DNA of 64,000 nt from Vulcanimicrobiota bacterium. GTDB taxonomy: Bacteria > Vulcanimicrobiota > Vulcanimicrobiia > Vulcanimicrobiales > Vulcanimicrobiaceae. Numbering within the stretch: the first letter of the stretch is position 1; each line of letters begins with the position of its first letter. Below, piece by piece: positions 37,954 through 55,514 of this stretch. A program made the position numbers and the translations under genes. The stretch covers positions 2,592,001 to 2,656,000 of the forward strand of contig OY970223.1 in NCBI GenBank assembly GCA_963714015.1, written 5' to 3'. Below the pieces are notes generated by a model, which saw nothing but the letters and a program-made list of their open reading frames with translations, ran no database searches and was not told the origin of the DNA.

Positions 37954-37963
37954 GGATGCTCCT

Positions 37964-39400
37964 CTAGGGCGTCGCCCAGGCGTGGAATGCGTCGTAGCGC
38001 GGATCGTTCACCCACGAACCGCTCGCGATGGAACCGAGTCCAATCGCGCTAAAGGGACCCCCGCCGTCGTCGCCGTCCCAAATCGACGCGTTCACGATGC
38101 ATGCGATCTGCGGGTCTTGCAGCGCAACGCCGTACGCAGCGGAGAGATCGTGAGCGGCGACTTGCGGATCGAGTCCGTACGCGCTCGTATCGCTTGCAAA
38201 TCCGGTTTCCGTCAGACAGATCGGCGGACGCTCACCGTTCTGCGCAGCGATCGCCTCAACGCCTTTGTAGTTCAGCCATTGATTCTCGTAGGTCAATCCC
38301 CAAGAGACGGACGGCGGCATCTGCCAGGCGAAATTGTGAACCGAAAGACCGTCCCAGCAGGCGCCGATCTTGCAGCCGGAAGCGTAGATATTCGTAAGAT
38401 CGGTGAACAAGTTCGTGTGATTGCCGCCGCCGTTTGCGAGGCCGGGGCCGTAGACGGTCAGACTCGGATCCGCTGCTTTCACGGCGGGGTAGCCCGCTTT
38501 GAGAAACGCTGCGATGCCGGCGCCGGTGTCTGAATCCATGAACCAATAACTTTGGTTTGGCTCGTTCATCAGCTCGACTTGCGCAATCTGCGGGAGACTT
38601 TGCTGGGCCATCTGCGCGTTGTGCGCGACGATCCAACGCGTCACGGTCGCCGCATACGTTCCGTAATCGGTAGCGTTCGCGAAAGCTTTGTTCATGCCGA
38701 TTGTCTGCTGAATCCGCGAACCGCCGTACTGCAAGATGATCGGGAACATCGCAATGCCGTGCTGCGCTAAATGCGTTGCGATGTAGTCGTACGCCGTCCA
38801 GTTGGCGTCTAGGCCGTTGAGATTGCCTTGCAAGCCGCCCCAGATGAATGAAGCCTGAATCTCCACCCGTGCGCACGTTGCACCGGCGTTCGCCGCGGCT
38901 TGTTCCGCTGAATCGATGAGCGTATTGGCCGGAACGTTCGGAAGGTTCTGGCACGGGTTGTGCGAGCAGTCGCGGATCGTCTGCTCCTCGAGCGTCCAGG
39001 TATGGCCCATGACGCAGTAGCGACCCTTCGGCGCCGGCGGATGCGAGACGGGCGGCATATAGACTTGCGCGGGCGTCGTGACGGTAAACGTTGCGCCGTT
39101 CGAAGAGACGACGTACGCGACGCCTGGCGTGCGGCGCCAGCGAATCGCGACGCTGTTTGCGCCCACTCCGCCGTAAGCGTAGACGGTTGCGGCAGGCGAA
39201 ACGCTCGCACTCGTTTGAACGGGTCCTGCTGCGAAGCGAAGCACGAGCGGCGTATCGTACGGCATGGTGCCGCCGTTCTGTATCGGATAGCAGAGGGTCG
39301 GCGTAATCGTGGTGCAGGCCGACTGAATCGCCGGTGAAGATTGCGCGGCCGGATGAGCAAGGTGCAGCGCGGTCAAGAGCGCGATGAAGAGATGCTTCAT
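37964..39400 (-). CDS. Secreted clan GH-A glycoside hydrolase (GH5/GH39-like)
   Basis: Signal peptide, VELMNEPN (acid/base), DGLSVH and ICLTETG (nucleophile). Confidence 0.8.
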   Translation of the reverse strand: MKHLFIALLTALHLAHPAAQSSPAIQSACTTITPTLCYPIQNGGTMPYDTPLVLRFAAGPVQTSASVSPAATVYAYGGVGANSVAIRWRRTPGVAYVVSSNGATFTVTTPAQVYMPPVSHPPAPKGRYCVMGHTWTLEEQTIRDCSHNPCQNLPNVPANTLIDSAEQAAANAGATCARVEIQASFIWGGLQGNLNGLDANWTAYDYIATHLAQHGIAMFPIILQYGGSRIQQTIGMNKAFANATDYGTYAATVTRWIVAHNAQMAQQSLPQIAQVELMNEPNQSYWFMDSDTGAGIAAFLKAGYPAVKAADPSLTVYGPGLANGGGNHTNLFTDLTNIYASGCKIGACWDGLSVHNFAWQMPPSVSWGLTYENQWLNYKGVEAIAAQNGERPPICLTETGFASDTSAYGLDPQVAAHDLSAAYGVALQDPQIACIVNASIWDGDDGGGPFSAIGLGSIASGSWVNDPRYDAFHAWATP

Positions 39401-40329
39401 TGACCGATTGCCGCTCCAATCGGACCCTGCAATCCGGTGCTTACGCTATAACGCGCTTGCGTTGAGAAGTTCTCCACAATGACATCACCCGCGCCGTTGT
39501 GGCCGTCGCCCATCTGCGGCAGCACCATTTCTCCGGCAGCATCGCGCGTTGCATACGCGACGTAAAAATCATGGTTATCCAAAACATGCAGCAACGTGTA
39601 GTTCGGCCCGCCATATTCGGCGACAGGAATCGGGCACGGACCCGCTGCGTACAGATTGCCCGCAGCGTCGACGCTGAGCGAGAAAACCTGAACGCTCGCA
39701 CGCGCGAAGATCGAGCGATGCGTTCCCAAGAACGCGCCTACGGGATACTCGTACACCTCTTCGACCGCTTCGCACATAACGTACGTCGGCCACGCATCGC
39801 CGATGCCGGAAATCGACACGAACACGTCACCGGCGCTATCGACCGCAATACCGCGCGGCGCGTATCCTGTCGGCGTGTTGACACTTTTCAGGTAGGTCCC
39901 GTTCGAAGAGTACTCGACGATCTGACCGCCGGACGTGCCGTGTTGCCAGGAATCCGCAACGTACACGGTGCCGTCGCTTCCGACCGCGACGTTCATCGAA
40001 TGATGCAAGTTCCACCAGAAGCGATGGATGACCCAACGCGCACCGGAGGCGTATTCCATGACGCCGTTCAGCGTTGCGACGTACACGTGTCCTGCGGTAT
40101 CCGTTGTGACCCCGCCGACATTCGGCAAGCCGCGCACCGCTCGAAGCGGCGCAGCGTCATTCTGCCCGGCCGGATAGACCAAAAGCGCGTTTTGCGGGCG
40201 GTCGGCGACGTAAAGGTAACGCGCAGCGGGAGCGTTATGGACCGATTGGACGGAAACGGGCGTCGGAATGGAGGCACTTGCGCATCCGGAAATGACAATG
40301 CACGCGAGCAATGCTAGGGCAGATCGCAT
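39397..40329 (-). CDS. NHL-repeat lipoprotein
   Basis: GAGGT RBS, MRSALALLACIVISGC lipobox, and PRGIAVDSAGDVFVS-type repeats. Confidence 0.8.
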   Translation of the reverse strand: MRSALALLACIVISGCASASIPTPVSVQSVHNAPAARYLYVADRPQNALLVYPAGQNDAAPLRAVRGLPNVGGVTTDTAGHVYVATLNGVMEYASGARWVIHRFWWNLHHSMNVAVGSDGTVYVADSWQHGTSGGQIVEYSSNGTYLKSVNTPTGYAPRGIAVDSAGDVFVSISGIGDAWPTYVMCEAVEEVYEYPVGAFLGTHRSIFARASVQVFSLSVDAAGNLYAAGPCPIPVAEYGGPNYTLLHVLDNHDFYVAYATRDAAGEMVLPQMGDGHNGAGDVIVENFSTQARYSVSTGLQGPIGAAIGQ

Positions 40330-40365
40330 AGGAAAAAACCTCGTAAAGCGAAGGTGTAAGAACAG

Positions 40366-40445: not shown

Positions 40446-40755
40446 CTACGGCGGCGAGTTTTGCCTGAAGATTCTTCAGGAACGCGATGCCTGCGGCGAC
40501 GAAAGCCGGCGCGCCTTGGGAGAGCGCGGCAGCGAGATTCGCCTCTTCCGATTGCAGCGCGCTGCCGACGATCGGCGAGAGCCACGCCGGAACGATCTTC
40601 TCGAGCGCCGCGTTGACGTTCGCCTCGGAGGGCGATGACCCGACAGCAGGAGCAACCGCTTCAACTTCGGCGATGATCGTCGCCTCGTTGGCTTGCGCTT
40701 CATTGGCGACAAAGCCGACAACGGCGGCTTCCAGTTTTTGAATGAAAGAACTCAA
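40446..40755 (-). CDS. Small Ala-rich amphipathic protein (stop probably lost to an indel)
   Basis: AAAGGT RBS and TTG start (SSFIQKLEAAVVG...). An out-of-frame TAG at 40446-40448 lies just before the terminator. Confidence 0.45.
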
Positions 40756-40817
40756 GATATGACCTTTCTGCAGAAATGGCAGCGCTGACCGGGCTGCGCG
40801 CGGTTTGCGAAGCAAAA

Positions 40818-41474
40818 TTAAAAAGCCGCACTAGGCGGCGTCTTTCTGTTTGAGCGCGACGACGGTTCCGGGCGTCGGCGGTGGCGGGGTAGTTCGAACG
40901 GTGCGCGGCATACCAAAGTACGCGGCGAGCACGGCCAACACCACGGTCCCGAATATCCAGACGAGCGCACCGACGAGCTGCGCGATCGGCGTCGCATCAG
41001 CAGGCATGAATTGGTGATGCCTGAGGTGGGAGAACGACCAATACAGCGAGATGAGATATTCCGGCTGACTGAGGAGTTTGAAAAGCGCGGCGACGGCACT
41101 GCATACCGACACGGCACCCGCGGCAAGGCCGATAAATCCGCAGCGATAGGTATTGAGGTTTTGCAGCATATCGTCCCCACCATGCGGTAGATGCGCACGC
41201 GCGTTACGCCTGAAAAGCGCAGATCATCGCGCACGACCGGTGAAACGTCGACAAGGTGCCCCGTCCATAGCGCCGGACCGTAATCCTCAACGACGCACCA
41301 CGATTCTGCGCCGTTAGCATCGTTGACGATCTGAATCCGCGTCCCGAACGGCACCAAATGCCGGGTTGCGCAGATGCGAGCGGCCGGATTAAATGGACGA
41401 CCGTCCGCCATGGTGCCGGGCTGGTTGTACCAGCTGGCAATGCCCATGGCGACGAACGCCCAGACCGGCGTCAC
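40818..41474 (-). CDS. RlpA-like double-psi beta-barrel lytic transglycosylase (credible part ~41180-41474)
   Basis: GIASWY...TMADG..FNP....CA...PFGT...I.N...V.DYGP.....VDVS...V.I. The C-terminal run-on overlaps the holin-like gene and is probably spurious. Confidence 0.75.
   Translation of the reverse strand: MTPVWAFVAMGIASWYNQPGTMADGRPFNPAARICATRHLVPFGTRIQIVNDANGAESWCVVEDYGPALWTGHLVDVSPVVRDDLRFSGVTRVRIYRMVGTICCKTSIPIAADLSALPRVPCRYAVPSPRFSNSSVSRNISSRCIGRSPTSGITNSCLLMRRRSRSSSVRSSGYSGPWCWPCSPRTLVCRAPFELPRHRRRPEPSSRSNRKTPPSAAF
40831..41169 (-). CDS. Holin-like two-TM protein
   Basis: Two hydrophobic helices, located in the lysis cassette and followed by a GCCGC-ctagt-GCGGC-TTTTT hairpin. Confidence 0.55.
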   Translation of the reverse strand: MLQNLNTYRCGFIGLAAGAVSVCSAVAALFKLLSQPEYLISLYWSFSHLRHHQFMPADATPIAQLVGALVWIFGTVVLAVLAAYFGMPRTVRTTPPPPTPGTVVALKQKDAA

Positions 41475-42166
41475 GTCGTCGCGAGGCGACGCTCTATCTC
41501 TATTTTATAGGCGTGCTCGCGTTGGCGCAGGGCGTTTCCCATGATCGACGGATCGATGTTCGCGTTGCTCATTCCATCCGGCAGCGGTACTTCCGTCGCC
41601 CAGTCCCAACGCTCGCCGGTCACGTAATAGTTTGCGTACTGTGGCGGATTGCCCGGATGATTCGCCGCTTCACCATGCGAAAACGAAATATGCTCCCCGG
41701 CATACGGACCATCCGCGGCGGTGCCGCTTAGGTCAATGTCGTACGCGCACGCGACAGCAGCGACGCCGGAGCACATCCAATCGGTCGTCGCGAGGGTGAT
41801 CGGCTCTGGTCCAAAGTTGTGCTCGTCGGCGAACGCCATATCATCCGTCGCGAACCCGAATGCTCCCGTGTTTCGCATATACGTGTGCGAGTGCTCGTCG
41901 TTGTCGTTCACGCCGATGGCGTTGTCTTGTGGGTTGCCGCAAACGTCGAAATAGAAGTGGCCGTTCGCGAAACGCAGCGCACCATTGTAATCGTTGAAAT
42001 CTTGGCCGTAATGCCCAACCGTCCAATGCCGGTAAATGCGCTTCAACGTACCGGGCGGACACGGATACTTCGACTTGAGCAGTTTTGCGTACTCGACGGC
42101 AGCGACTATCGCCGCCTCGGTCAAAGGCGCGGCAGGGTCGAAAGTTCCGAGCGGATTGAAGTCCAT
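41471..42166 (-). CDS. Endolysin, N-acetylmuramoyl-L-alanine amidase (Amidase_2-like)
   Basis: IYRHWTVG.Y...DY, HSHT..RNTG, SHGEAA and ERWD. GGAG RBS before ATG 42166. Confidence 0.75.
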   Translation of the reverse strand: MDFNPLGTFDPAAPLTEAAIVAAVEYAKLLKSKYPCPPGTLKRIYRHWTVGHYGQDFNDYNGALRFANGHFYFDVCGNPQDNAIGVNDNDEHSHTYMRNTGAFGFATDDMAFADEHNFGPEPITLATTDWMCSGVAAVACAYDIDLSGTAADGPYAGEHISFSHGEAANHPGNPPQYANYYVTGERWDWATEVPLPDGMSNANIDPSIMGNALRQREHAYKIEIERRLATT

Positions 42167-42170
42167 GTGA

Positions 42171-42593
42171 TTACTCCCCAGGTCTATAAAAAGAGCCCCC
42201 TTGACGGAGGCTTTCTTGTAGTGCTTCTTCGAGTTCGGCCGGTATCGGTGGGAGTCCGGATTCACCGCCTCCGCTGCGCACGTGCCCAATGACTGATCCG
42301 ATGTAAACGATAGCCGAAGCGAATTGACGCTTCATACTCCGCATTTCGTCGCACATCTGCTCGACCGCCGCTTTCCAGCCCTCGGAACTCAATCGGTAGG
42401 CGTCAGCTGCTGCGCGTGCTTCTCGCTCGCGTTGCAGGGCGGAGTCGCGCTCGCTCAGTGCGATCGCTGCTTCGTGCGCAAGGTGAACCCTGTCGCGAAA
42501 TACGGGTATGCCGCGGATAACGCCATACATTGCCGTTAATGCGGCGACGAGTTCAGCAACGGCGGTAATGAGCGGCACGAGCTGAATGTGCAT
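42171..42593 (-). CDS. Single-TM coiled-coil protein (holin/antiholin-like lysis accessory)
   Basis: N-terminal TM helix then a charged coiled coil, directly upstream of the endolysin. Confidence 0.5.
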   Translation of the reverse strand: MHIQLVPLITAVAELVAALTAMYGVIRGIPVFRDRVHLAHEAAIALSERDSALQREREARAAADAYRLSSEGWKAAVEQMCDEMRSMKRQFASAIVYIGSVIGHVRSGGGESGLPPIPAELEEALQESLRQGGSFYRPGE

Positions 42594-42682
42594 GATTCCC
42601 CAGCGGTGGCGAGCAAGGTGCGTTTTGGAGGCGATCATCAAGAACTGATCCTCTTCTAGACGAGGAACACCCAGTAGCCTGT

Positions 42683-43507
42683 TTAGTTGGAAACCTCGAT
42701 GTGAGTGACGCGTCCGCCGGCCGAAACCGATCCGGTAGTCGGACCGAGGCAGCCATGGACGTTTTGGCTGTAGTACGAATAGTTGACGGTCTGGTATGCA
42801 ACCGCCGCGGCGACGTAGTAGACGCCCGACGAGGGAACGGTGCCCCCTTTGCTGGTCGGATTCCACTGATTCGTCGTCGTGTTCTGTTGTTCGATGACCT
42901 GACCGCCGCTCGCGTTGAGTAGTTCGATAGTCGTCGAACCGGTCGCCGTCGATGTCAGCCGCGTGGTACACGAACTCGTCGAGTAGTAGGTCGTCGAGGC
43001 CGTCTGCGGCTCGGAATCGAACGAGACCGTGACGTGTGTCCCGCCGATAATCGTGGCGCCGTCGTTTACCGCCTGCTCGATCGTAAAGCCGGATGTGGTT
43101 CCGTACGCGTCTTGCGCACCGCTCGGCGGCGAATTCGGGTCTTGCGTGGCGCTATAGGAAACCGAACCCGCCTGCACGGTCCAGTTGAGCGATCCCTGAA
43201 TCAGCCACGGATCGTCATCCGGTTGAATCGTCGTCGAGTTGACGGCGCAGGATTCAGCAGCGCTCAGGCCCATCATCGCATTCGACGGAGATCCCGAGCA
43301 CGCGCCGTTATTTTGAACGTACGTTTCGAAGTCGCTGACGGACACGGCTTGAAGCGAACCGTTCCACGATGACTGCGCACTGCTTTTCCACGTGAACAGC
43401 GAGCCGATGTGCGAGTAGACGTACCCGCGGCTAAAGCCCTGGTCTGACGCCAGCAGCGCGACCGCTGCGATCGCGCAAAGCAGCGCGCGCGCTAGCGGCG
43501 AACGCAT
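42683..43507 (-). CDS. Signal-peptide-bearing beta-rich protein downstream of the tail fibre
   Basis: MRSPLARALLCAIAAVALLA..., Ser/Thr-rich with paired Cys. Confidence 0.6.
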   Translation of the reverse strand: MRSPLARALLCAIAAVALLASDQGFSRGYVYSHIGSLFTWKSSAQSSWNGSLQAVSVSDFETYVQNNGACSGSPSNAMMGLSAAESCAVNSTTIQPDDDPWLIQGSLNWTVQAGSVSYSATQDPNSPPSGAQDAYGTTSGFTIEQAVNDGATIIGGTHVTVSFDSEPQTASTTYYSTSSCTTRLTSTATGSTTIELLNASGGQVIEQQNTTTNQWNPTSKGGTVPSSGVYYVAAAVAYQTVNYSYYSQNVHGCLGPTTGSVSAGGRVTHIEVSN

Positions 43508-45654
43508 GAGGGAACCTTGCGGTTCTGCGGCAAGGCGCACAGGCCGCGAACCATCTTTACGAGTCCGTCGATCTCGCGTTGCTCCTTCAGAATTGCGAGC
43601 GCGTCGACGGTCGAGAGCGCGGCAGCATCGAAGTGATCGTGATGCGCACCGGAGAGCACCGAGGGCGTATCGTTGGCAATGAATCCGTAGCGCTCGGTCT
43701 TGCCGCCGTCGCCGTAGCCTTTCCGATACCGGTATTGTTTGAAGTCCGTCTTCATCAGCACGTCGAGCGGGTCGAACGTGATCGGCATAATGTCGTGTTT
43801 CCACTCACGCCGCGACGGGAAGAGGAAGTTCGAGGCATAGACGCTGCCGCCGACTCCGACGTTGCTCGAGTTATCGACACAGACGCGCCAGGCGATCGCA
43901 GACTGGGCGATTCCCGCGGTGGTGCAGGGAATGCCCTGAAGCGTTACCGCCGAGCCCGGGGCGCCGAACTGCGCAAGGCCGTTGACGACAAGATTGTTGT
44001 TGCCCAGAATGTTCAGCGGACCGTTCACGTTCGAACCCGTCGGACCGTAGGACGACGATCCGGCGACGACCGCGCCGCTGCTATTGAGCGTCAGGCCGCC
44101 GTTGATCGTTGCACTCGCCGGGCCGTACGTCGACGACCCCGCCAAATACGATCCTTGGATCTTCACGCTGCCGCCGTGCTGCAGTTGCACTTCGTTGACG
44201 CCGCCGACCTGATAGTCCGCGATGTCGCCCGTCGGCGAGGACGCGTTGCTGGCATTCCACGTGAACGGTACGGCTGAACCGGTTGCATTTGAGGCAATGG
44301 TTGCGCCGCTAGTGCTCGAAAACGCGAAGGGAGACGCAGCAGAAAACGTCTGCAGTCCGGCGAAGGTCTGAGGGCCGCTCGTCTGGGCGCACGCCCCGGA
44401 AATCGTTCCGAGCGATGACGTGGACGTCGCCTGCACGCAGAAGCCGTTCGTAAAGCCGCTGAACAGGTTCGTCAGCCCAGAGCCATTGCCGACGAAGGAC
44501 GCGGCCGTCACCGTTCCCGCGGGCGAGACGCTGAATTGCGTCGCACCATTGTACTGGAACTTCGAGTTGCCGCTACTATCGACGGCAAAGTTCCAGGTAT
44601 TCGTCTGCGGCGCGCTGCCCGTCCAAGACGACGACTGCAGTTGGAACCCGCCGACTGACCCGTAATTCTGAGACGACGTCGCAACGCCGGCTGGCGTGAT
44701 TTGACTGTTTCCCGCCCAGGCCGCGCTGTTGGCTGAAATCGATGTGAACGACGGCGTATGCGAAACGTCGACGACGTAGTTCGATCCCGAAGGCGTGACA
44801 CTGACGTTCGCGTCGCCCGCCGAGACCGTCGTCGGCGAACCGCCGGACGTGTTGCATCCGCCGCTCACAAGTTGCGCATTCGCATCGAAGAAGGCACAGG
44901 TCGCCGGCGAGACGCCCGCGTTCCCGATCTGTGCCCAGCCGTGGTTCCACCCGGGCGCCATCGTAATGTTCGAGGACGTGATGCTGGTCTGGCCGTTGGC
45001 GACCGCTACCCACCCGAGCGCGACATAGCCGCTATCCGCCGTCGGCTGCGTCGGTGATGTGCCGGCGGTTCCGGCTTTGGCGACGATCGAGATGAGATCT
45101 GACCGTTGCTGCGCGACGTTGAAGGGCGACGGATTGCCCAGGTTATCGAGAAAGGTGCGGCTCGCGAGATTGTGATCGAGTGGCGGCTGCACCTGCGCTT
45201 CGATGAGGTAGTACATCGAATAACCGGAGGTGGTCGGCGCCGTGAGCGGCCCGATCGGCGCGGTCGCCGAGCTGATGAAGGCCGGAACGGCGATCTTGGT
45301 TGGATCGGCGGGCAACGCGTCCGGGTCTGCCGTCGGTGTCGCTTGCGGCATCGGATTCGGATCGTCCGCAACCTGTTGATAAACTGCGCCGTTCGTTGAA
45401 CCGGCGGTAGGCGCAACCGTCACGTTCAGGCCGCTGCCGGGGCTTATCGTAAGATCCGCGTACGTGCCGGTTAAGCCGGCATGCAGCATCATGGTGCCGA
45501 TCAGAATGCGGGTGTCGCGCTCTTGCTGATTATAGTCCTGGTCGTTCGGCTGCAGACCCCAATAGTAGATCTGGCGATCGCCCGCGCGCGCCGGCAGCAT
45601 AACGAGTTGAGACAATAAAAACGCTGCAAGCACAGCGCATAGCACTCGACGCAT
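43492..45654 (-). CDS. Tail fibre with an N-terminal signal peptide and a C-terminal Peptidase_S74-like chaperone
   Basis: GGGAG RBS, MRRVLCAVLAAFLLSQLVMLPARA|GDRQIYY..., anchor motifs AKAG.AG...P.AD.GYV.L..V.VA.GQT.I....I, and C-terminal SRREWKHDI...YRY...YGFIA plus a coiled coil. Confidence 0.8.
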   Translation of the reverse strand: MRRVLCAVLAAFLLSQLVMLPARAGDRQIYYWGLQPNDQDYNQQERDTRILIGTMMLHAGLTGTYADLTISPGSGLNVTVAPTAGSTNGAVYQQVADDPNPMPQATPTADPDALPADPTKIAVPAFISSATAPIGPLTAPTTSGYSMYYLIEAQVQPPLDHNLASRTFLDNLGNPSPFNVAQQRSDLISIVAKAGTAGTSPTQPTADSGYVALGWVAVANGQTSITSSNITMAPGWNHGWAQIGNAGVSPATCAFFDANAQLVSGGCNTSGGSPTTVSAGDANVSVTPSGSNYVVDVSHTPSFTSISANSAAWAGNSQITPAGVATSSQNYGSVGGFQLQSSSWTGSAPQTNTWNFAVDSSGNSKFQYNGATQFSVSPAGTVTAASFVGNGSGLTNLFSGFTNGFCVQATSTSSLGTISGACAQTSGPQTFAGLQTFSAASPFAFSSTSGATIASNATGSAVPFTWNASNASSPTGDIADYQVGGVNEVQLQHGGSVKIQGSYLAGSSTYGPASATINGGLTLNSSGAVVAGSSSYGPTGSNVNGPLNILGNNNLVVNGLAQFGAPGSAVTLQGIPCTTAGIAQSAIAWRVCVDNSSNVGVGGSVYASNFLFPSRREWKHDIMPITFDPLDVLMKTDFKQYRYRKGYGDGGKTERYGFIANDTPSVLSGAHHDHFDAAALSTVDALAILKEQREIDGLVKMVRGLCALPQNRKVPSCVRR

Positions 45655-45662
45655 GTTTCTCC

Positions 45663-47264
45663 CTAGCCCGGCTGCATCGCCGTGATGACGGCCTCGGAAA
45701 TGTTGTTGTTCGAATCGATCGGCGCCCAACCAAAGAGCGTAAGCGAACCGCCGTACGGGTTGGAACCACCCTCGCTTCCGAGATAGTAGGGCAGACCCAT
45801 CGAAGTCGGATTGTAGACCAGATCGACGGTCACTTCGCCCGCGGGCAGATTCGCGCCGACACTGTTCGAGTTTCCGCCTGCATTGCCGACGAAGGCGCCG
45901 TTGACGTACACGCCGACCGATGCAACGCCCAGAGCGTGGAACGTAATATTGGCTCCGGCAGCAAGCGTCAGAATCGTGCGATAGCCGATTGAGAAAGGCT
46001 CGCCGTAAACGGTGTCTGCGCCGATCTTGATGCTGCCGTCGAGCGAGAGGGACTTGCCCCAATTCGTACCATTCCCCGGACGCGCGTAGCCGCCGCCTGC
46101 AAGGAACGTCACCGTGAAGGGCATACTGCGCGGCGGCGGATTCTTCAGCGCTACGCTCGTCGTCGCGCCGTCGGTAACCTCGAAGTCCGTGGAGAAGTCG
46201 AGCTCGAGCGCGCCAGCATAGCCGTTGAGGGTGGTCACGCCCTCGTTATCAAACGCAAAAGTGCCCGACGAGACGCGACGCACGTGGACGCCATTGCCGT
46301 CCTCGAGCGTGAAGGCTTCCGGACCATCGCCGTTGATCGTCGCGGCCGCCGGAGGCGCCGGAACGTTAATCTTGATCGTTTGCGCGTCTTGCGATGTAAC
46401 CGCCGCAACACCGCCGCCCTCGATGACGACCGATCCGGATTTGCCGTTCACACTGGTTTGTGCTTGCGCCGGCGGGGCGTTGATCTGAATGGTGCCCGCT
46501 TCCGGCTCGGTTACGGTTACCTGGCCGTCACCCTGAAACGTGAAGATCGGGCCGTTCTGATTGTTGATGACCGTTTCCGGGACGGTAATGTCGATCTGCT
46601 CGGGATTCCCCGAATCGACCGCAACCGTGGCCGCGCCCTTGCCGGCGAGTAATACCGATCCGCCCACGCCGTTGAGCGACGTTACGGGCGAGCTATCCGT
46701 TCCGGTGATGCACTTGCGCACGTCGGGAAAGATCATCGTGATATCCGCTTGCGTGATACCGGTCGCATTCGCTGGAACGGTAATACGAGCGAGTTCCACG
46801 TAGCCGGCCGGCGGCGTTTCGCTGCCTTCGACGTACTGCAGTGTTATCGTGTTAGCGTCGAGCGGAATGACCTGATCGGTCTTCGACCCGTCGATAGCCT
46901 CGACTTCGCGTGTAATCGTATCGCCGTCCGGAACCTGCGGCGTCGCCTGGATCGCGATGGAATCAGTGCGTTGCGCCGGCCCCGAACCCGGGCACTGCAG
47001 TTGCGTTGCAGGACAGTTGTCGCACCAATTCCCCTCCACGAACACGCGTTGGTTCGCGCCGCCGACCGTGACCTGAAACGACCCGTTTGCCGTAATCTGC
47101 AGCGGATCCATGGCAGGCAGGGCATTCATAACGCCAAGGACCGCTGCGAGGATCTCTTGCGATCGGTTGCGCGCAGCCTGCGCTTCCGAGAGCATATCCG
47201 CAGACTGGACGAGCTCGCCGTCCTCGAATGCGACGTTCTCGGTGTTGGAAAAATCCGAACTCAT
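45663..47264 (-). CDS. Tail fibre-like protein with (V)TS(L/V)NG repeats and no signal peptide
   Basis: P.GYVELARITVPANATGIT..DI anchor motif, and repeats VTSLNGVGG, TSVNGKSG and VTTLNGYAG. Confidence 0.7.
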   Translation of the reverse strand: MSSDFSNTENVAFEDGELVQSADMLSEAQAARNRSQEILAAVLGVMNALPAMDPLQITANGSFQVTVGGANQRVFVEGNWCDNCPATQLQCPGSGPAQRTDSIAIQATPQVPDGDTITREVEAIDGSKTDQVIPLDANTITLQYVEGSETPPAGYVELARITVPANATGITQADITMIFPDVRKCITGTDSSPVTSLNGVGGSVLLAGKGAATVAVDSGNPEQIDITVPETVINNQNGPIFTFQGDGQVTVTEPEAGTIQINAPPAQAQTSVNGKSGSVVIEGGGVAAVTSQDAQTIKINVPAPPAAATINGDGPEAFTLEDGNGVHVRRVSSGTFAFDNEGVTTLNGYAGALELDFSTDFEVTDGATTSVALKNPPPRSMPFTVTFLAGGGYARPGNGTNWGKSLSLDGSIKIGADTVYGEPFSIGYRTILTLAAGANITFHALGVASVGVYVNGAFVGNAGGNSNSVGANLPAGEVTVDLVYNPTSMGLPYYLGSEGGSNPYGGSLTLFGWAPIDSNNNISEAVITAMQPG

Positions 47265-47273
47265 ACGTGTCCT

Positions 47274-48386
47274 TTAGGTGGAACGCAAGATGTAGACGGG
47301 GCGCACGCCGCCCGCTTTGATGCGACGCACAACGATGTCCAGGTTGGGGTCCGGCGCGGCTCCCGGCCCGAACTTGGTCGAGTCGAAGACCTGCGCCGCG
47401 TGGCCCAGGATCGTTTCCCGTCCAAGATGCGCAAAATCGGCATAGAACGCCGAGTCGTCAGTCGCCCACTCAATGACGATCGCGACCTGGCCGTAGGTAA
47501 TGTTGAACGCCGCGGCTGACGTCGGGTCGCTCTGCGTGTCGAACACGTAAATATTGGGGACAAGTAACTGCTCAGATGACGGTTGGAAGACGGCTAAACC
47601 GCCGCGCGTACCGATACCGCCCATCGTTCCGAGTGAAAGGTCTTGCAGCACCTTATTGGCCGTGACTGCCTCGGCCGCAAGATAGTAATTCACGGCGCCG
47701 GTGAGAATCGCTTGAAGCGTTTGCAGCTTCATCCCGAGCCGCTTGCGAATTCGCAGGGAATACGCAGCATCGTTCCCGGCTTCCGACGGCAACCGCTGCA
47801 TTTCCGTGCCGTAGATATCATTCGCGGTCAGGTCGAGGTTGTTATCGCTGCGAGTTGCCCAGCGCGTCTGGTTCTTCGTATACGGAATTTCGAGCGAGGC
47901 AATGTACCCAAAGCCGCTCGCAATACCGAACGCCATCGCGTACAGTAGCCCGGTCGTCGACGGATCGCCCGTATCGGTGCGCGCCGCATCGGTAAACCAC
48001 CGCTTTGGGATCAGCGCCATGATCCGCTGCGTAAATTCGGCTTGCGTGTACGGTAAAGGCGGCGGCGGCGGCGGCTCAACCGGCTGCTGCGTCTGCTCCT
48101 GAACGGGGACCAACACGCGAATCGTTTGATTCGTTCCCGTGCCGATGAAGGTGGTCGTTCCGGAGGGAGCGTTGGCGCCCGAAAACGTCACGTCGTACAG
48201 GACGTTTTGCCCGGCGTACATCTCGATCGTACCGCCGGCTGCGAGAATGGCGGTCTGAACGAACTCGTCGCCCTGCTGGATAATCGTCGCCGTCAGACCA
48301 GCCGCCAGCGGCGTACCGGTCTGATCGACGAAAGTCACTTCTACTTGCTGGGATACGCTTTCGCCAAGCAGCAAGAGAAGCGACAT
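47274..48386 (-). CDS. Baseplate wedge subunit (Mu gp48/P2 gpI-like) with an extra N-terminal domain
   Basis: RI.ALIP.RWF, QTR.AT..D..LDL.A.D.YG...R..SE...D..Y..RI, and its position just before the fibres. Confidence 0.65.
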   Translation of the reverse strand: MSLLLLLGESVSQQVEVTFVDQTGTPLAAGLTATIIQQGDEFVQTAILAAGGTIEMYAGQNVLYDVTFSGANAPSGTTTFIGTGTNQTIRVLVPVQEQTQQPVEPPPPPPLPYTQAEFTQRIMALIPKRWFTDAARTDTGDPSTTGLLYAMAFGIASGFGYIASLEIPYTKNQTRWATRSDNNLDLTANDIYGTEMQRLPSEAGNDAAYSLRIRKRLGMKLQTLQAILTGAVNYYLAAEAVTANKVLQDLSLGTMGGIGTRGGLAVFQPSSEQLLVPNIYVFDTQSDPTSAAAFNITYGQVAIVIEWATDDSAFYADFAHLGRETILGHAAQVFDSTKFGPGAAPDPNLDIVVRRIKAGGVRPVYILRST

Positions 48387-48400
48387 GTATGCTCCTTGGG

Positions 48401-51400
48401 CTAGTGAACGACGAGCAGGACTTGGCCGTCGTACAACACTTGCGAATTGCTGGTGATGTCCGAAAGCGACTTCGAGTAGTCGAACGTGCCGCCGTTCGGG
48501 ACGTCCTGACCGCTCGATCCGTTACAGACCGCAGCCGTTCCGTAGCCGAGTGATCCGCTCTGCGGCATCGCGTAGATCGGCGCACCGGACCCCGATCCCC
48601 AATAGGTCGAAAGCGGCGTGCACGGCACCAAGACGTGACCGAGACGCGAGTAGGTATGCGGCGCCCAGCCCGAAAGGTTCGAGGCACTGACGACTCGCGA
48701 TGCGCCAGATCCGTTGATGACAACGAGCAGCGGACCGCGGTCCTGAGCGCATGCGAACCACTGCCGCCGGTCGAATGCCGTGCAGCTGCCGCTTCCGGTC
48801 ACATCGAACACCCAGAGATGCTCGAACTCGAAGCAATACAGCCCGGTGATGCCGTTGCAGAGGATGTTCGAATCGTACGATCCGCCGACCGCGCACTTGA
48901 CGTTCGTACCGTTGTACGGAGACGAACCCTCGCCACACGGCTTCTGCCCAGAGGCGCCAGTCGGATCTGCCGGCATGGGCGTATCGCGTCCTGACGGCAT
49001 AACGAAATCGAATGGCCAGACGTCCATGCAGTTCGGGGAGAGTCCAGCGCTGCCGAAGCCGCACATATCCGAGAACTCGGATAACATAACGGGTGCGTCG
49101 TCCGAGAAAAGGCCAAGAATCGGGGCGTATTCCCACAGTTGATTCTGCTGGTGAATGCCGGTCCCGAGCGAACTCGTTGACGTCCCCTGAATCTCGTCCG
49201 ACTGATCGGCAAGGAACATCGCGGCGATCTGCGTGTTGATGCCGGTCTTGACCGTTTCTTGATAGAGCGCAGCGATATTGTTGATCGCGCTGTGCATCCC
49301 CTGATCGACGCCAATACCGCTCTTGAGTCTGCTGAGCGACCGGGCCGTTATAGGGCAGCGGTTGAGGCGTCGGGCACGTCACGCCGTCGCACCCAACGAG
49401 CGTTTCTTCGTCAACTCCGAAGCGCGTGTTCGCGTTTTGGTTGACCGCTTGCGAAGTGTTCTGCAACCCGTTATAGGTCACGTTCATCGCCGATCCGTTC
49501 TGATGCTGCAATCCACCAAGGAAAGCGGCCAGCGCGGTCTCGTACGACGTGTCAGACGGGAACGTCAGCGGTCTATCGTTGCTCGTCAGGAGCGTCGTGC
49601 GCGTGTGGTACGTGCCATTGAAAAACGCGCTCGGATTGAACGATGTGCCGCTCGCGCCAGAGGTTGGGTCTGCGTACGGAGATGACGAGCCGGTTCCGAA
49701 GTTTTTGCCGCCTTGGTACGACCCGTCCCATATATCCCAGCCCGCGGATTCCAGGCCGATGAAGGCGTTGTCTTTGAATACCGAGGCGATCGCGTCGAAC
49801 GGTTGGGTTGACGCATTGCTGTCGTGCTTGCAATTCGCAATCACGTCGTTCGTGAACGCGAGCAGGCTAGCCGATCCGAGGTTCAGGTAGAGGTAGTATC
49901 GAGACGATCCGTCGATTCCCCAGCCCATATAGTCGACGTTTCCGGTCGTGCCGCCGTTGACGTAGATAAACCAATTGTTCGCGCCGGTCGACGTGTAGTC
50001 GGGAATCGTGTACGGAGTTCCGGCCAGCGTGACGCTGGTTTGCTGATCCCAGAAGTTGCCGCTGCTGATCGTCGCCGCGGCGTCGCACGTGCGCGATCCG
50101 TTATTGAGATATGAGCCGTGGAACGGGAAGTCGACGTCGTGTCCGTTCGCGTCGGGTTGCCCCAAGCCGGACTCCATGTAGTATTCCCAGCCATTTGCAA
50201 AGTTCCAGCGGCCGGGGCCCGGGCACGTCGTGGGCCAGAGGTTGTTACTGTTCGCGGTCGATCCGATGCACAGATCGTCGTATTGCGCGATCTGCGCGGA
50301 CGTCGCGGTCATGTTCGAATTTACGCCCTCAGACGAGAGCTCGCCGAACCAGGCCATTTCATCGCGTAACGGCGGCGGTGTCGCCGCAGGTGGCGTCGGT
50401 GTGGGCGTCGGGGTGGGCGTCGGTGTCGGAGCCGGCGTCGGGGTTGCGTAAAACGAGCCCGAGAAGCGCGCGGTCTGCGACATGGTGATGAACTCGGATA
50501 AGCCGTTCGCATCGAAGATCCAGTCGCGATCGCATTTCGGGTAGTTCGACCAGGACTCGAATGTGCTGAAGACCTGCGTCTTCGGAAAGTCGAGCGGCAT
50601 GTACGTCATCGCATCGGAGTACCACTGCGCTTGCGTGTTCAGCCCGGCGACGTAGCCGGTGCAGTTCGGGTCCGCCGTGACGTTCGCGCTGTTTTCAGCA
50701 CTCTCGATCCAGCCCTCGGGGAGATCCGGGTACCGGCTGGTCATGTAATTGTAGTACACTCTGGTAGGTGTTCACGAGGCCGTTCGCGTTGCCGACGTCG
50801 TACTGATCGTCGCCGATCATGTCAACGTCGTACGACCCGTCGATAGGCGCTGCGCACTCGAGCACGTAGCAGGTTTTCGGAAAGAAATTCTCGGTAAGCG
50901 ACGGGTTGCCGCCGGTAGGATTCCACAGCCACATAATGTTCGTGGCCCCGTCGATGTAGACGGAACGATAGTAGACGTACTCGTACCAGGCTTGAAAGAG
51001 TTCGCCCTTTTGAGCGTCGGTCGGAGCCATGCCGGTCGCTGGCCAGATTGCGGGAAAGTCGTAGATGGAGTCGTTATTGCTGCACTTCGCTGAACTCAGG
51101 CACTGATCGAATTCGTGAAACGGTCGCGCGTAAATCGGACCCGGATAGGCTTTCATACGCTGCGCGAATGCGTCGATGTAGCTGTCCCACTTCTCGTAGC
51201 ACTGCGTAGACGAATTTGGATTCGTTGCGCACGATGGCGGCGGAGCGGGGAAGCCGAGCGACTCCGCAACCGCTGCCGGTAAATAGCTTGCGAGCGATTC
51301 TGCCGACGACGTCGGGAGCCCAGCACTCCAAGAGACAATCGGCGTACGCTTGAGGGCTATAGAAGCGATGATGCGCGGATCGATGGGAGCGCCGACCGGT

Positions 51401-51735
51401 CCCCAAACCTTTGAGCCCGAATTCACGAAGTAGGTGGGCGAGCCGTAAATGAGATCGATCGGCAGCGAATGCCCCACGAGCGTTTCGAGCGTCTCTTGGT
51501 TGTTCTCTTGGATCTGCGCACCGCTCAAGATCAGACCGGTGGGCTTCGGTGACGGGCTGGATGCCGCGCGGAAAAAGCCACCGACCAGAATTTGGCCCGA
51601 GGGGAGCGGCGTCGGGTGCGGGTACGGCGTCGGAGGGTGGCCGACGAATGGCCACGTGCCGTACGTTTGCTGCGCGCTAGCAATACCGCTCAAAGCGGCA
51701 AGCAAAAATACGGCCGCGAGGGCGCTTCGAAGCAT
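48401..51735 (-). CDS. ~1,100-aa secreted two-domain glycoside hydrolase (GH26-like, PT linker, second putative GH); frameshifts ~50762 and ~49320
   Basis: Signal MLRSALAAVFLLAALSGIASA|QQ, GH26-like PIYARPFHEFD, IMWLWNP and VDMIGDDQYD, a PTPAPTPTPTPTP linker, and a second domain with FKDNA and VTYNGL. Confidence 0.65.
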
Positions 51736-51743
51736 TCCTACAC

Positions 51744-53356
51744 CTAACGTGAGCTGAATTGCGTGCCGATGATGTTGATGTTTATCGTCGCCACGGAGGC
51801 AGACGATCCGAAACAGAGCCCGTCGCCGATTACGGTGCGGAAGATCTCGCTGTTTGCCATGTGCAGCACGACGTTGCCTCCCGCGGGAACCAGGATCGGC
51901 GCGCCGATCGCGACGGCAACGCCTGAGCCGCCGCAATTCGCGCCGGTCCCCTCATAGGCTTGAACGGAGACTGCCGTCGCGCTGGTGTTGGACAAAGTGA
52001 GCGCCGAAACGCGCACTGCGGCGCCGGTTTGCTCGGTAACGCCTTTGATGCAGCTCGTCGTACTATTCAGCACGACCGGGCACATCGAGCCCTGGGAAAC
52101 GGACGTTGTGCACATCGACAAGCCGTTGTAATCGTTGTCCGCGAAGAGCCCGGCAACGTCCGGAGCGCCCATGGTGCCCTTGGAGTCGGCGAGGCCGGTT
52201 ACCGTGGGCGTGTTCTTGATCGCGGTCCAAGCATAGCCGTTACCGTAGCCAGAAAGCGGCGAGATGGACCATGCAACCGTCGGCGTTCCGGAAAGCGCTC
52301 CCGCTGCGCGCACGCGAATCCAGCCGGCACCGGTTACGTTGAGTTGGTAGACGCCGTTGGCGCTGGCAAAGTAGTTCGGGGTGTTCGACACGGGACTCTG
52401 CAACCCGAGCTGAATCCCAAAACCTGAGACCCAGCCGCCATTCGAGCCGTTCGTCGAATCGACGCTGCGTTCGTAGTAAAGATTTCCGGACGTCAGGCCG
52501 CTAATGCGCAGATCGACTTGACCGCACGCACCAGGGCAGTAAAACGCGGCGTACGAGTCTGCAGTCGGCGCCGTCGTATTGACGTTTCCATTGCCGAACA
52601 TCGCCGGACCGGCGCTGTCGGTAACCAAGATTTGCGCGCTCGAGGGAGCGGGACTCGCTTGGGCTACGAACTGATTGCCGGACGTGTCGCAGCGCGTAGA
52701 GTACGCTGTTCCGCCGTTGGCCGTGACGGGCGACGTCACGGTGGGGCAGTAAGGCTGCGTGTTGACGCCGTTGCCGGGATTAGACGTCGCGGCAGGTACG
52801 GGCGGAGGCGGCGTTATGACGGCAACGGGACCGTTCGACCCGTTGATGTTCACATTGACGTCGCCGGCCGGGTCGAACGAGAACGGCAGTCCGCCGCTAT
52901 AGCGCGGTGAGCAAAGGATCGTAATCGATCCGGTACCCACGTTCGTCACGCTCAGATCGAAATAGCGCGCGCCGTTGAGTGCAAAGATGTACTGTCCGTT
53001 CGCGGTGAGCGAACTTCCCACGGTGGGCCCCTGGACATAGATGCCATTTGCCGCTTGCGGTTTCGCGTTCAGCGAATCGAATGCCAGATACGACGTAACT
53101 GCCGTCGTTCCGTCGAAACCCTCCAGATCGCAGCCGAGTGCGTGTACGCATGGATTCCGCCGTCGAACGTGTACGAGTACGTGTTCGGCGCGGGCGTCGC
53201 GGTGGCGGGAAACGTCGTCGGGGTGGGCGCCGGAATGACGTGCTGCACCTGCGAGTACGTGGTCTGTGCCTGCGTCGGAGCCAAGAAACAAAACAGCGCC
53301 ACGAGGGCGCCGAACGTTCCGATTCCATACTTGAGTAGAGAGCGTTTTAACGCCAT
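51744..53356 (-). CDS. Signal-peptide-bearing beta-rich phage appendage-like protein (frameshift ~53125)
   Basis: MALKRSLLKYGIGTFGALVALFCFLAPTQA|QT joined to the body in the frame of the ORF at 51744..53291. Paired Cys and jelly-roll-like modules. Confidence 0.55.
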
Positions 53357-53838
53357 GCGACGAGCACTCCTTTTGTCGGGGCTGGACCTGCCAGGTTGAT
53401 GCAAAGCCCGGCGGGGACGCTCAGGCCGTCGTATTCGGCTCGGTCGCCAAGATTCGTAAAATTGCCGATGCACTGACCGCCGGCCGAGGTGGCGCCGTTG
53501 TAGACGCCGATCGTGTAGGCCGCCGGAGCACCTTCGAGGTTGCGGAGGTAGCCGATCTCGACGGCGCCGGCGATATCGGTGTCACCGAGTGCGTCGACGA
53601 TCGTGAACTTGAAGGGCGTATCCGCCGTTGCAACGGGATATCCACCCTGCATACCTTGCGTCGCAACGGCGCCATTCACCGGGGCGACGCCCGGCGCGGT
53701 GACGTCCGCTTTGCTGATCGTGCCGCCTTCTTCGCACGCGATCTCCATCAACTGCGCGTGGCATTGCTGCCCAGCCCACGTTCCGACATCGGTCGCGACG
53801 TCTTGGCCGCCCGTGAGCTGGATGAAACTTTGTCCCAT
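53347..53838 (-). CDS. Phage hypothetical protein (tail-associated)
   Basis: GAGAGG RBS, and a DVATDVG...HAQL motif of a kind seen in phage tail-region proteins. Confidence 0.6.
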   Translation of the reverse strand: MGQSFIQLTGGQDVATDVGTWAGQQCHAQLMEIACEEGGTISKADVTAPGVAPVNGAVATQGMQGGYPVATADTPFKFTIVDALGDTDIAGAVEIGYLRNLEGAPAAYTIGVYNGATSAGGQCIGNFTNLGDRAEYDGLSVPAGLCINLAGPAPTKGVLVAWR

Positions 53839-53853
53839 GGTACCTCTCTCGGT

Positions 53854-55071
53854 TTAGGAGATGGTGACGTGCGTAAGATCGGTGCGCGCGAGTTGAAAAT
53901 TGGTCAGTGGAATATCCTGATACGCGTTGTTAATTTGCAAGTTCGCGTAGCCCAGCAGTCCCTGGCCGGGCTGCGTTCCAACGAAACTCTCCACGAGTTG
54001 GATCAGTCCGATGAATGGCAGCTTGCCGGTTGGGTTAAGGCCGCCAGAGCCATACGTGGAACCGCCTGGACCGTTTGCGTTGACCCACGCAATAATCGCT
54101 TGCTGCAGCGCGAGCTGCACTTGCCCAAGCTGAAAGCCGGGCTGCGCTACGGTTCCACTGACGGTGACGGCAACGATCTCGTTTTGCGGTGGCACCACGT
54201 CGAAACCAATGCCGCCCGTTCGAATGGCCGAGATACTGCTTTTAATAGCTGCTATCGTGACGTTAGGGATGCTTCCCGATCCATCGTCAACGCAGATCGT
54301 ATAGTACGCGTCCTTCTCGTTGCCGTTCTGGTCGGTTAGGTCGTTGTAAGTGAAGGCGAGGCCGACTTGCGTGCCCGAGACGGCCGCGCAGATCCCGCGT
54401 TCGGTTCCATCGCCGCCGAGCGCCGCCATCCAATCGGTGAAGCGCTGCCAAAGCGGCCCGTCTTCTTCCGTGGGATTGCCATTACTGATCGCGTTCTGGT
54501 TCGTAACATTGTCCGCCGGAACGTTGGGGCTCGAAATGACGGTGAGCGTTCCCGCCTCGAGGTTGCCGATTGTTCCGGCCGTAAGACACCGCGCCGTGAC
54601 CGCAACGGTGAGGCCGTTTGCCGGAAAAATATAACCGCCCAGCACGGTGCTCGATGCTGGATTGTCGGGATCGGCGATGGCTTGGAACTGCACCGGCATT
54701 GCCGGCGGCTGAACGACATTCTGAACGATCGTATCGAACGGGATGACGCCCTGATTCGGATTCGGTTGATTGTTCGCAAACGTGAGCGTCGTCGTAGCGA
54801 ACGACGCACTGAGGCGTGGCGTAAAGCCCGATTCGACGAAATCGCCGACGTAGGAGTCGAGATCGGCGCCGGCGCACAGCTTGCCGCGCGAGAGCTCGGC
54901 GACGTCGAGATTTTGCTGCTGGACGAAGTCAAACTGTGTGGCCAGCGAGTATGTGAGGGCAGCTTCCGGGGTGTTATCACTGAAGTCGTCGATCTGATCG
55001 GTCTTAACGATAATGCCGGACTCGATGTCCTCCTGGAACTGCTCCGGAGTCTTGGTTTGCGGCTGAGGCAA
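53854..55071 (-). CDS. Baseplate J-like protein (P2 gpJ/Mu gp47)
   Basis: GADLD..V.DF...R..A..A, C.TAG.IGN..AG, NG...EED..L..RF, VDDGSG and R..GI.F.V. Confidence 0.88.
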   Translation of the reverse strand: MPQPQTKTPEQFQEDIESGIIVKTDQIDDFSDNTPEAALTYSLATQFDFVQQQNLDVAELSRGKLCAGADLDSYVGDFVESGFTPRLSASFATTTLTFANNQPNPNQGVIPFDTIVQNVVQPPAMPVQFQAIADPDNPASSTVLGGYIFPANGLTVAVTARCLTAGTIGNLEAGTLTVISSPNVPADNVTNQNAISNGNPTEEDGPLWQRFTDWMAALGGDGTERGICAAVSGTQVGLAFTYNDLTDQNGNEKDAYYTICVDDGSGSIPNVTIAAIKSSISAIRTGGIGFDVVPPQNEIVAVTVSGTVAQPGFQLGQVQLALQQAIIAWVNANGPGGSTYGSGGLNPTGKLPFIGLIQLVESFVGTQPGQGLLGYANLQINNAYQDIPLTNFQLARTDLTHVTIS

Positions 55072-55082
55072 AGCGCAATCTC

Positions 55083-55514
55083 CTACGTTGACGGAACAGT
55101 GAACGAAATGGCCCGCGGGCGGTTGCTAACCGCATCGTTATAGTAAATCGTGATGACCAAGCCACCTTGAACGCCGTCGACGTTGATTCGCGGCGTTGGG
55201 ACTTTCGCGATCTCGTCGATCGTCTGGCATCCTTCTTGAATGAGCGCCTTAATGTCCGTGAGGTCTTTGCTCGAGTACGAGTCGCCGACTTTACGACAAA
55301 GCCCGATGCCGAACGACGCGTTAAAAATGTAGTCCGCCGGCAGCACGCTGCCGTCCGGATTAACGATGCGCTGATTCGTAAGCAGCCAACGAACGAGTTT
55401 TTGCGCGGCGAGCGTCGAGCCGGAGCAGCAGAGGAGCGAACCGGTTGGCCCGACTTGAAAGTCGCCCCCTTGTCCGTTGAAGAGGTTTGGCCAGTTCAAA
55501 GATAGGCTGCTCAT
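55083..55514 (-). CDS. Baseplate gp25/gpW/gp46-like sheath initiator
   Basis: GDF.VGPTG.L...QKL.R.LLTN...DYIF...FG.GL, located between spike and J. Confidence 0.7.
   Translation of the reverse strand: MSSLSLNWPNLFNGQGGDFQVGPTGSLLCCSGSTLAAQKLVRWLLTNQRIVNPDGSVLPADYIFNASFGIGLCRKVGDSYSSKDLTDIKALIQEGCQTIDEIAKVPTPRINVDGVQGGLVITIYYNDAVSNRPRAISFTVPST

Follow-up and report, generated by a model that had tools for sequence, protein, structure and literature searches.

By the textbook account, tailed phages are assembled wholly in the cytoplasm; could some of their parts be folded elsewhere? The question is raised by a contractile-tail prophage of a Vulcanimicrobiota bacterium, whose late operon occupies the minus strand of the 64-kb stretch analysed here (the window; G000:C1:2592001-2656000 of a 3.56-Mb, one-contig genome). 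A sequence-only reading had claimed that four genes of this operon, starting at 53356, 51735, 45654, and 43507, begin with basic-hydrophobic N-termini, and all four were present at these coordinates on the minus strand. They belong to a tail fibre (protein A), a sugar-cutting enzyme (protein C-E), and two further late proteins (D and B), which very probably fold outside the cytoplasm where the particle is built. Export to the periplasm and disulfide folding, as that reading had proposed, are well supported for A, because the predicted leader recurs in 10 of 10 members of its family and goes with paired cysteines (Cys), and reasonable for C-E, a member of a secreted GH26 enzyme family; for D and B no relatives were found for comparison.

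Four leaders in a late operon

The predicted leader of A (MRRVLCAVLAAFLLSQLVMLPARA/GDRQIYY, the slash marking the putative cleavage site) comprises 24 residues (45654-45583) and starts at an ATG 8 nt past the preceding stop, with GGGAG 5 nt upstream. The others are those of C, the first part of C-E (MLRSALAAVFLLAALSGIASA/QQTYG), of D (MALKRSLLKYGIGTFGALVALFCFLAPTQA/QTTY, with AAGGAG upstream), and of B (MRSPLARALLCAIAAVALLA/SDQG), whose cleavage site is weaker. Each of the four genes opens with the first ATG that follows or overlaps the stop codon of its upstream neighbour, and the Shine-Dalgarno motifs are clear for A and D. Judged by a home-made rule rather than SignalP (charge of the n-region, hydropathy of the h-region, and the -3/-1 rule), all four N-termini passed as leaders, A, C, and D cleanly and B with Leu at -3. 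The clean AxA-type sites described for the first three were therefore upheld, while the site described as missing from B proved to be a weak one.

Leaders were found on four of the seven genes between the baseplate J gene and the lysis block, and one of the 25 genes from the terminase region to J in the hand-ordered operon passed the rule, weakly. The operon scan also flagged A, B, and one membrane protein of the lysis block; D and C went unflagged there through wrong automatic starts. As had been stated, the sheath, tube, hub, and baseplate genes, together with the tape measure and the second fibre (protein G), carried no leader, and the endolysin carried none either. The leader genes belong to the late operon, since the genes of the module abut or overlap their neighbours and no promoter-like site was found on the coding strand (minus strand, 40500-55500; a sigma-70 consensus was assumed, which may not fit this host). 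They do not have the promoter and terminator of their own, set apart from neighbouring genes, that mark a moron. All four appear to be genuine late genes, translated from the leader-encoding starts.

The leader of A could be compared across a family of 10 members including A itself: four relatives in the protein collection, two of them held by two IMG/VR phage contigs; one further metagenome contig; and copies in three other genomes. Genomes with a member number 4 of 401 in the phylum sample and 4 of 348 in the bacterial family, the host genome being included in both counts. In 10 of 10 members a leader stands at the same place, with basic residues, 12-18 hydrophobic residues, and a small-x-small site, so that conservation in homologues, which the earlier reading had put forward as a check, held for A as a property and in position; it was seen by eye in seven of nine relatives of C, and D and B offered no homologues to compare. 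In an alignment of eight members the Ala at -1 was invariant and the hydrophobic core showed no sequence conservation, while R27 and Y31, directly behind the cleavage site, were invariant in all eight.

The long starts were preceded by a Shine-Dalgarno-like motif in seven of the eight members for which DNA was at hand, and internal starts in none; near the cleavage site, start codons are absent from three members (L001, L010, and L072). Because the motifs precede the long starts only and three members lack an internal start codon, the leader of A is predicted to be translated, and no leaderless isoform is expected. A dual start, giving a leaderless cytoplasmic isoform from an internal codon, was considered and ruled out by the Shine-Dalgarno pattern and the three members without such a codon. 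The N-terminal peptide predicted for mature A is GDRQIYYWGLQPNDQDYNQQER.

A tail fibre with paired cysteines

At its C-terminus A carries a Peptidase_S74 chaperone domain (PF13884; residues 616-667, 28.9 bits against a cut-off of 22). The catalytic Ser/Lys motif of S74 domains is SDxxxK (PMC10769870, in part); A reads SRREWK, with Ser and Lys at the right spacing and Arg replacing Asp, as judged directly rather than from a residue-level alignment to a solved S74 domain. The N-terminal region is shared with G: hhalign of the two families gave a probability of 94.6 and E 6.7e-8, placing A 46-235 on G 29-184. Both fibres follow a gpI-like baseplate protein (F), the order being J, (insert), F, G, A in the window; J, F, G, A in L001, L002, and L010; and J, F, A in the related genome G405. 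The G405 prophage looks complete (integrase, terminase, capsid, sheath, tube, tape measure, gpW, J, and F) and has a leader-bearing A-type fibre directly after F, with no G-like gene seen.

Among cultured phages, F-like proteins were found only in Ralstonia Rahariannevirus and in the Komagataeibacter phages phiKX1 and phiKX2 (6 records). Ralstonia phage Hyacinthe (MT740743) has homologues of the spike, gpW, J, and F, the last being the gene after J (BLASTP E 1e-13), and residue 3 of its 576-aa fibre aligns with residue 26 of A, with 34% identity over 225 residues (BLASTP). The sole fibre of phiKX1 (LC644975; 623 aa) lies directly after the pair of J and F-like genes and starts MDRQIVYPAQIP. 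The module slot is accordingly the same in phiKX1, Hyacinthe, and the window: spike, gpW, J, F-like protein, fibre. Mature starts in the A family include GDRQIYYW (A itself), GNRATVYP, TDRWIYYP, and SDRVIVYP, and the leaderless starts MDRQIVYP (phiKX1) and MTDRVTTWP (Hyacinthe) resemble that of mature A from the second or third residue; because of this resemblance, cleavage would regenerate a normal fibre N-terminus. The phiKX1 and Hyacinthe fibres are leaderless, with few and scattered Cys (3 and 6), whereas the A family has a leader of 21-26 residues and 4-18 paired Cys; A also differs from them in its C-terminal S74 chaperone. We therefore regard A as, to all appearances, a canonical tail fibre of a P2/Mu-type baseplate with a leader added, and not as foreign cargo. 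The alternative that these proteins are domesticated host adhesins was not supported, as members of the A family occur within tail operons, on phage contigs and in prophages.

Hyacinthe itself appears to supply a second, independent case of a leader-bearing fibre. Its gp29 (L081 3978-5630, CDS 8G_00029; 550 aa), annotated merely as hypothetical and sharing 99.8-100% identity with its counterparts in Albius and Raharianne, is encoded directly after the gpI-like gene and before the 576-aa fibre. The N-terminus, MKRLIFAFFFCISAHTNA/QFVSGQVLTASGLN, reads as a textbook leader placed ahead of the start that is usual for the other fibre type, and the mature protein has four Cys in two pairs. Residues 64-550 recur in 45 other Ralstonia phage records, with matches beginning at query residue 64 or later; in GP4, the one of these records examined, the N-terminus of the homologue is leaderless. 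Compared with solved structures, gp29 had no matches.

The closely spaced Cys pairs that had been reported were confirmed in the mature proteins, those of A being 253/267, 406/422, 577/592, and 706/717. Mature leader-bearing fibres contain 8, 14, 14, 18, 16, 4, and 8 Cys (the last from a cut open reading frame [ORF]), with 4 in Hyacinthe gp29, 16 in P0004, and 4 in P0005; the number was even in 10 of 10 such fibres, gp29 counted in, and 40 of 43 sequential pairs in the eight of them with DNA were no more than 22 residues apart. The leaderless fibres (G types, Hyacinthe, and phiKX1) have 6, 3, 4, 5, 7, 7, and 4, an even number in three of seven, with 5 of 16 pairs within 22 residues. This pattern, from cases that are not all independent (L001 and L002 are near relatives), looks as expected for folding in an oxidising compartment.

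Structural comparison added little for A. An AlphaFold2 model of residues 1-260 (8 sequences) had a mean predicted local distance difference test score (pLDDT) of 40.7, too low for a fold search, and searches with the A sequence and the A3 profile found nothing significant among solved structures; in the genome contigs, none of 203 pattern matches was a relative. A 514-aa leader-bearing protein was noted in a different type of phage, with DNA polymerase, terminase, and transglycosylase genes (L013 12962-14506; G203:C144). Its C-terminal part matches the tip region of the A-family members P0002 and P0003 (E 1e-9), a hint that leader-bearing proteins may exchange tips. In a further genome, a lipoprotein with beta-propeller-like repeats adjoins an A-like gene (G300:C32; L012 1289-2353).

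The neighbouring proteins, the prophage, and its host

Behind its 21-residue leader (51735-51673), C-E has a GH26 catalytic domain joined by a Pro/Thr linker to two more domains rich in Cys. The earlier reading had missed that C (50695-51735) continues into E1 (48522-50759) and then E2 (48401-49297) by way of two more frame breaks. Because C and E1 match consecutive stretches of a single protein, P0009 (C residues 1-324 on P0009 1-263; E1 residues 3-95 on P0009 271-355), C-E is treated here as one gene, and C as the probable start of one secreted GH26 enzyme of roughly 1,100 residues, split only through errors of the record. A HMMER search of 1.84 billion representatives yielded 11 proteins at E <= 0.001, the query C among them, and a profile of C with nine relatives matched the solved structure of Clostridium thermocellum endoglucanase H (2v3g, E 7e-23) as well as GH26 mannanases down to 1e-5. 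Pfam Glyco_hydro_26 was found in four of the ten family members, C by itself having no Pfam match. Glu208 (FHEF) is invariant in 10 of 10, and a candidate second catalytic Glu, placed by eye only, lies past the frame break, where WIESAE of E1 stands opposite YVESGE of P0009. The Cys pairs of C are 169/179, 212/218, and 289/294. The seven relatives counted above start with a leader or lipobox, the other two of the nine fetched starting inside the domain, and P0011 (1109 aa) has the same build of leader, GH26 domain, Pro/Thr linker, and extra domains. C-E appears to be an ordinary secreted polysaccharide hydrolase in kind, unusual only in its tight packing inside a tail operon.

Neither D nor B had relatives among 5.8 billion proteins, and the segments D2 and E2 had no matches among 50,697 phage records. 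A language-model Atlas placed D2 among viral hypothetical proteins (score 0.94), and a minor Atlas set for D2 had the XepA family in 11% of its members, both of which we treat as leads only; the same Atlas yielded nothing for B (score 0.76). The public gene call for B (P0007) starts at the same codon as ours and includes the leader. Pfam searches at E up to 5 with B, D2, I, E1, E2, F, and G returned sub-threshold noise only.

The structural genes within the window encode the sheath, tube, tape measure (in two frames), hub and spike proteins, a gpW-like protein, and Baseplate_J (Table 1). Past the right edge lie terminase, portal, and capsid genes and, farther out, methyltransferase, replication, and recombinase genes. 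After J the order is 163-aa protein, D, C-E, F, G, A, B, and then the lysis block. In related phage contigs and prophages it is tape measure, hub, spike, gpW, J, F, G-like fibre, A-like protein, endolysin, with J directly followed by F in L001, L002, L010, and L044; because nothing separates the two genes in these loci, the three intervening genes of the window (163-aa protein, D, and C-E) appear to form an insertion peculiar to this prophage. The 163-aa protein itself had no Pfam or PHROG matches.

Table 1. Features of the late operon, listed in the direction of transcription
Feature	Coordinates	Strand	Match
Sheath	62517-64631	-	phrog_23
Baseplate J protein, leaderless; reference point of the module	53854..55071	-	Pfam Baseplate_J, E 1.8e-17; phrog_6 (baseplate wedge), E 3e-26
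163-aa protein, no leader; first of the three-gene block between J and F	53347..53838	-	
Protein D: predicted leader of 30 residues (53356-53267), then ~460 beta-rich residues behind a Pro/Thr-rich linker; frame changes near 53125	51744..53356	-	
Protein C-E: ~1,100 codons in three frames; breaks near 50750 and 49300	48401..51735	-	P0009 (C and E1, adjoining stretches)
Protein F: gpI-like baseplate protein, additional domain at the N-terminus; leaderless and free of Cys	47274..48386	-	phrog_26379, E 2.5e-9
Protein G: leaderless tail fibre, N-domain paralogous to A; Cys scattered	45663..47264	-	
Protein A: predicted leader, canonical fibre N-terminal region, shaft with four Cys pairs, C-terminal Peptidase_S74 chaperone	43492..45654	-	
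Protein B, immediately ahead of the lysis block: 274 aa, beta-rich with two Cys pairs, N-terminus leader-like (cleavage site weak)	42683..43507	-	
Lysis block, end of the operon	40818..42641	-	phrog_5867 (endolysin), E 6.4e-13
Membrane/coiled-coil protein (lysis block)	42171-42641	-	
Endolysin (lysis block)	41471-42166	-	
RlpA-like protein (lysis block)	40818-41474	-	
Two-helix membrane ORF (lysis block)	40831-41169	-	

The lysis block ends at a terminator-like hairpin (40825-40839). Its RlpA-like protein has a hydrophobic N-terminus and turns Arg/Ser-rich beyond about 100 residues, and the 112-aa ORF with two membrane helices, which is holin-like, overlaps the end of the RlpA-like gene in another frame. 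Just beyond the operon terminator lies an NHL- and SBBP-repeat lipoprotein, beta-propeller-like (window 39397-40365). Left of the prophage, two host-type proteins with a leader or lipobox are encoded on the minus strand (36400-39400); one (37964-39400) has two paralogues in the same genome, with 74% and 56% identity, and the other (36400-37953) has a long Pro/Thr-rich region and C-terminal paralogues. No tRNA genes were found within the window. In the bacterial family, Baseplate_J occurs in 35 of 301 genomes, most matches being proteins of 650-1160 aa in conserved clusters with neighbours of 1,600-1,970 aa. Of 20 such loci surveyed, 19 were large-baseplate, injection-system-like clusters without a leader-bearing fibre after J, and only that of G405 resembled the prophage in the window.

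The host is read as diderm, with an outer membrane, because its genome encodes Omp85 and LpxC; it also encodes signal peptidase I and a VKOR homologue. In this record rpoB is split into 933 + 535 aa and rpoC into 782 + 553 aa (G000:C1:2035484-2038733 and 2063474-2066972, outside the window), and secA is unbroken. In relatives, rpoC is one frame of 1266-1295 codons in four of four genomes and rpoB one frame in three of three complete genomes. Because these essential genes are split here yet whole in relatives, the frame breaks of the module are most likely errors of the record and not prophage decay; frame-breaking errors throughout the record would fit its completeness score of 89.6%, although the genome is a single contig. 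The tape measure occupies two overlapping minus-strand frames (59492-60721 and 58453-59553), each half matching tape-measure PHROGs; probably this is a single gene split by a frame error near 59520.

Fate of the exported proteins

With high confidence, we infer that the four products would pass the Sec translocon, be cut by signal peptidase I, and fold with disulfides in the diderm periplasm. Cleavage of A would recreate the N-terminus x-D/N-R-x-x-x-Y/W-P, which leaderless fibres of cultured phages carry right after the initiator Met. Mature A would then trimerise in the periplasm, helped by its S74 domain, and attach to otherwise complete particles, already equipped with the leaderless G, when the holin opens the inner membrane. 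Such periplasmic trimerisation followed by docking at lysis is plausible, and we put it a little short of an even chance. It is favoured by the conserved, canonical docking end of A, by the A-type fibre being the only visible fibre gene of G405, and by the reasoning that no leaderless isoform would be possible. Docking is also favoured by the ability of T4 and Mu fibres to attach to finished particles in vitro. C-E, D, and B are more likely to be soluble periplasmic proteins freed by lysis, C-E as a free polysaccharide depolymerase; for these three the free-protein reading is the simpler, because they show no sign of a virion-docking end. In general form, some tailed phages may finish their particles outside the cytoplasm, with a Sec-exported, oxidatively folded, and S74-processed fibre docking on fibre-poor particles at holin opening, a trait that would have arisen more than once (A-type fibres in an uncultured lineage, and the other fibre type in Ralstonia Rahariannevirus). 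We advance this proposal tentatively, as somewhat less probable than its negation.

Several observations weigh against this proposal, beginning with the export step. The leader rule is permissive: 438 of 3052 crude ORFs of the genome pass at the first start and 685 of 3052 when any start within 40 codons is counted, i.e., 14-22%. The leaders of D and B rest on one sequence each, and models of DsbA, DsbB, and Thioredoxin_4 had no matches in the host genome. The public gene call for A (P0001) begins at Met19, within the hydrophobic core; together with the frame errors of the record and a Met directly after the predicted cleavage site in L044, this might mean that start choice or an error-prone record has created the leaders and that the true proteins begin downstream of the hydrophobic segment. 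We consider this very improbable, given that Shine-Dalgarno motifs precede the long starts and no internal ones, that three members have no internal start codon, that the leader is kept in all 10 members from independent contigs, and that the public call for B includes it. Alternatively, the hydrophobic N-terminus could be real and stay uncleaved, as a membrane anchor or structural helix that would retain the fibre on the cytoplasmic side, or fasten it to the inner membrane, up to the time of assembly. The weak site of B would fit such an anchor, as would the helix that AlphaFold renders at residues 2-15 of A in its low-confidence model. An anchor is nonetheless unlikely: the segment is short (12-18 residues), small-x-small falls at one column in the eight aligned members, most members have a Pro 4-6 residues ahead of the site (by eye), its sequence varies, as that of leaders does, whereas structural helices are usually conserved, and paired Cys track the presence of the leader.

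The fate of A after export is harder to decide. A could be exported yet never enter the virion, as a fibre paralogue turned periplasmic or released accessory which, with the GH26 enzyme, D, and B, binds or breaks down the receptor polysaccharide of the dying cell and of cell debris, or loosens the matrix, and so frees progeny, while the particle uses G only. In five of the six loci with a known upstream side (window, L001, L002, L010, and L072) a leaderless G stands beside A and could serve the virion alone, Hyacinthe too has one leader-bearing and one leaderless fibre, and C-E belongs, with its leader- or lipobox-bearing relatives, to an ordinary secreted bacterial family. There are precedents as well. 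XepA of Bacillus subtilis PBSX, a pentameric dumbbell, is a late protein whose gene lies between the tail fibre and holin genes; it is exported during phage development and absent from particles (PMC6834076, in part). B holds a XepA-like position, although XepA shows no sequence likeness to B, D, or A. The MAT fibres of Bdellovibrio bacteriovorus combine a signal peptide, a conserved beta-rich N-domain, a trimeric fibre, variable tips and, in a subset, an S74 chaperone-protease, and act on the cell surface (PMC10769870, in part). Their likeness to A is one of architecture only (leader, N-domain, and S74), and they show that such fibres can fold outside the cytoplasm; MAT genes are chromosomal in the predator and their fibres sit on its surface, whereas A lies inside a phage tail operon and has an N-domain of the baseplate-docking type.

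A role for A outside the virion is harder to reconcile with its docking end, which stays conserved and equals that of leaderless virion-type fibres, needlessly so for an accessory that never docks. It also leaves G405 with no other fibre gene in view, although the contig ends 1.3 kb past the fibre and another fibre gene beyond is possible, and a Sec leader alone cannot take a protein across the outer membrane. We hold this alternative to be a serious one, only slightly less probable than docking at lysis. Export, cleavage, and presence in the particle are all predictions from sequence.

Export signals are not new to the neighbourhood of tail genes: lambda lom and bor, T5 llp, and cor lie among or beside the tail fibre genes of temperate phages. 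Those genes encode small lipoproteins or proteins of the outer membrane, and as a rule each has a promoter to itself and is active in the lysogen. Unlike these, the genes in the window abut their neighbours, no promoter-like site was found for them, and A is a complete fibre in its own right. Sec-exported and SAR (signal-arrest-release) endolysins, of the fOg44 and P1 types, are tailed-phage late proteins that use host Sec before lysis (PMC6834076, in part). Those exports are lysis enzymes, whereas here a fibre, a glycoside hydrolase, and two further proteins would be exported while the endolysin is leaderless. A full-text literature search, with most subscription journals outside its coverage, returned no paper describing Sec leaders on tailed-phage tail fibres.

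If docking at lysis is correct, passage of a receptor-binding fibre through the periplasm would be a new assembly step. Infectivity would be tied to the Sec, signal peptidase, and disulfide machinery of the host, and disulfide-rich fibres in soil phages would be explained. In practice, such fibres and depolymerases would misfold on cytoplasmic expression, and gene callers may trim their leaders, as happened with A. phiKX1, whose host is Komagataeibacter xylinus and which has a leaderless relative of A, provides a comparison system. Even if the fibre never joins the particle, the export, shortly before lysis, of a fibre of the phage's own type along with a polysaccharide hydrolase would point to an unstudied strategy of release or receptor masking.

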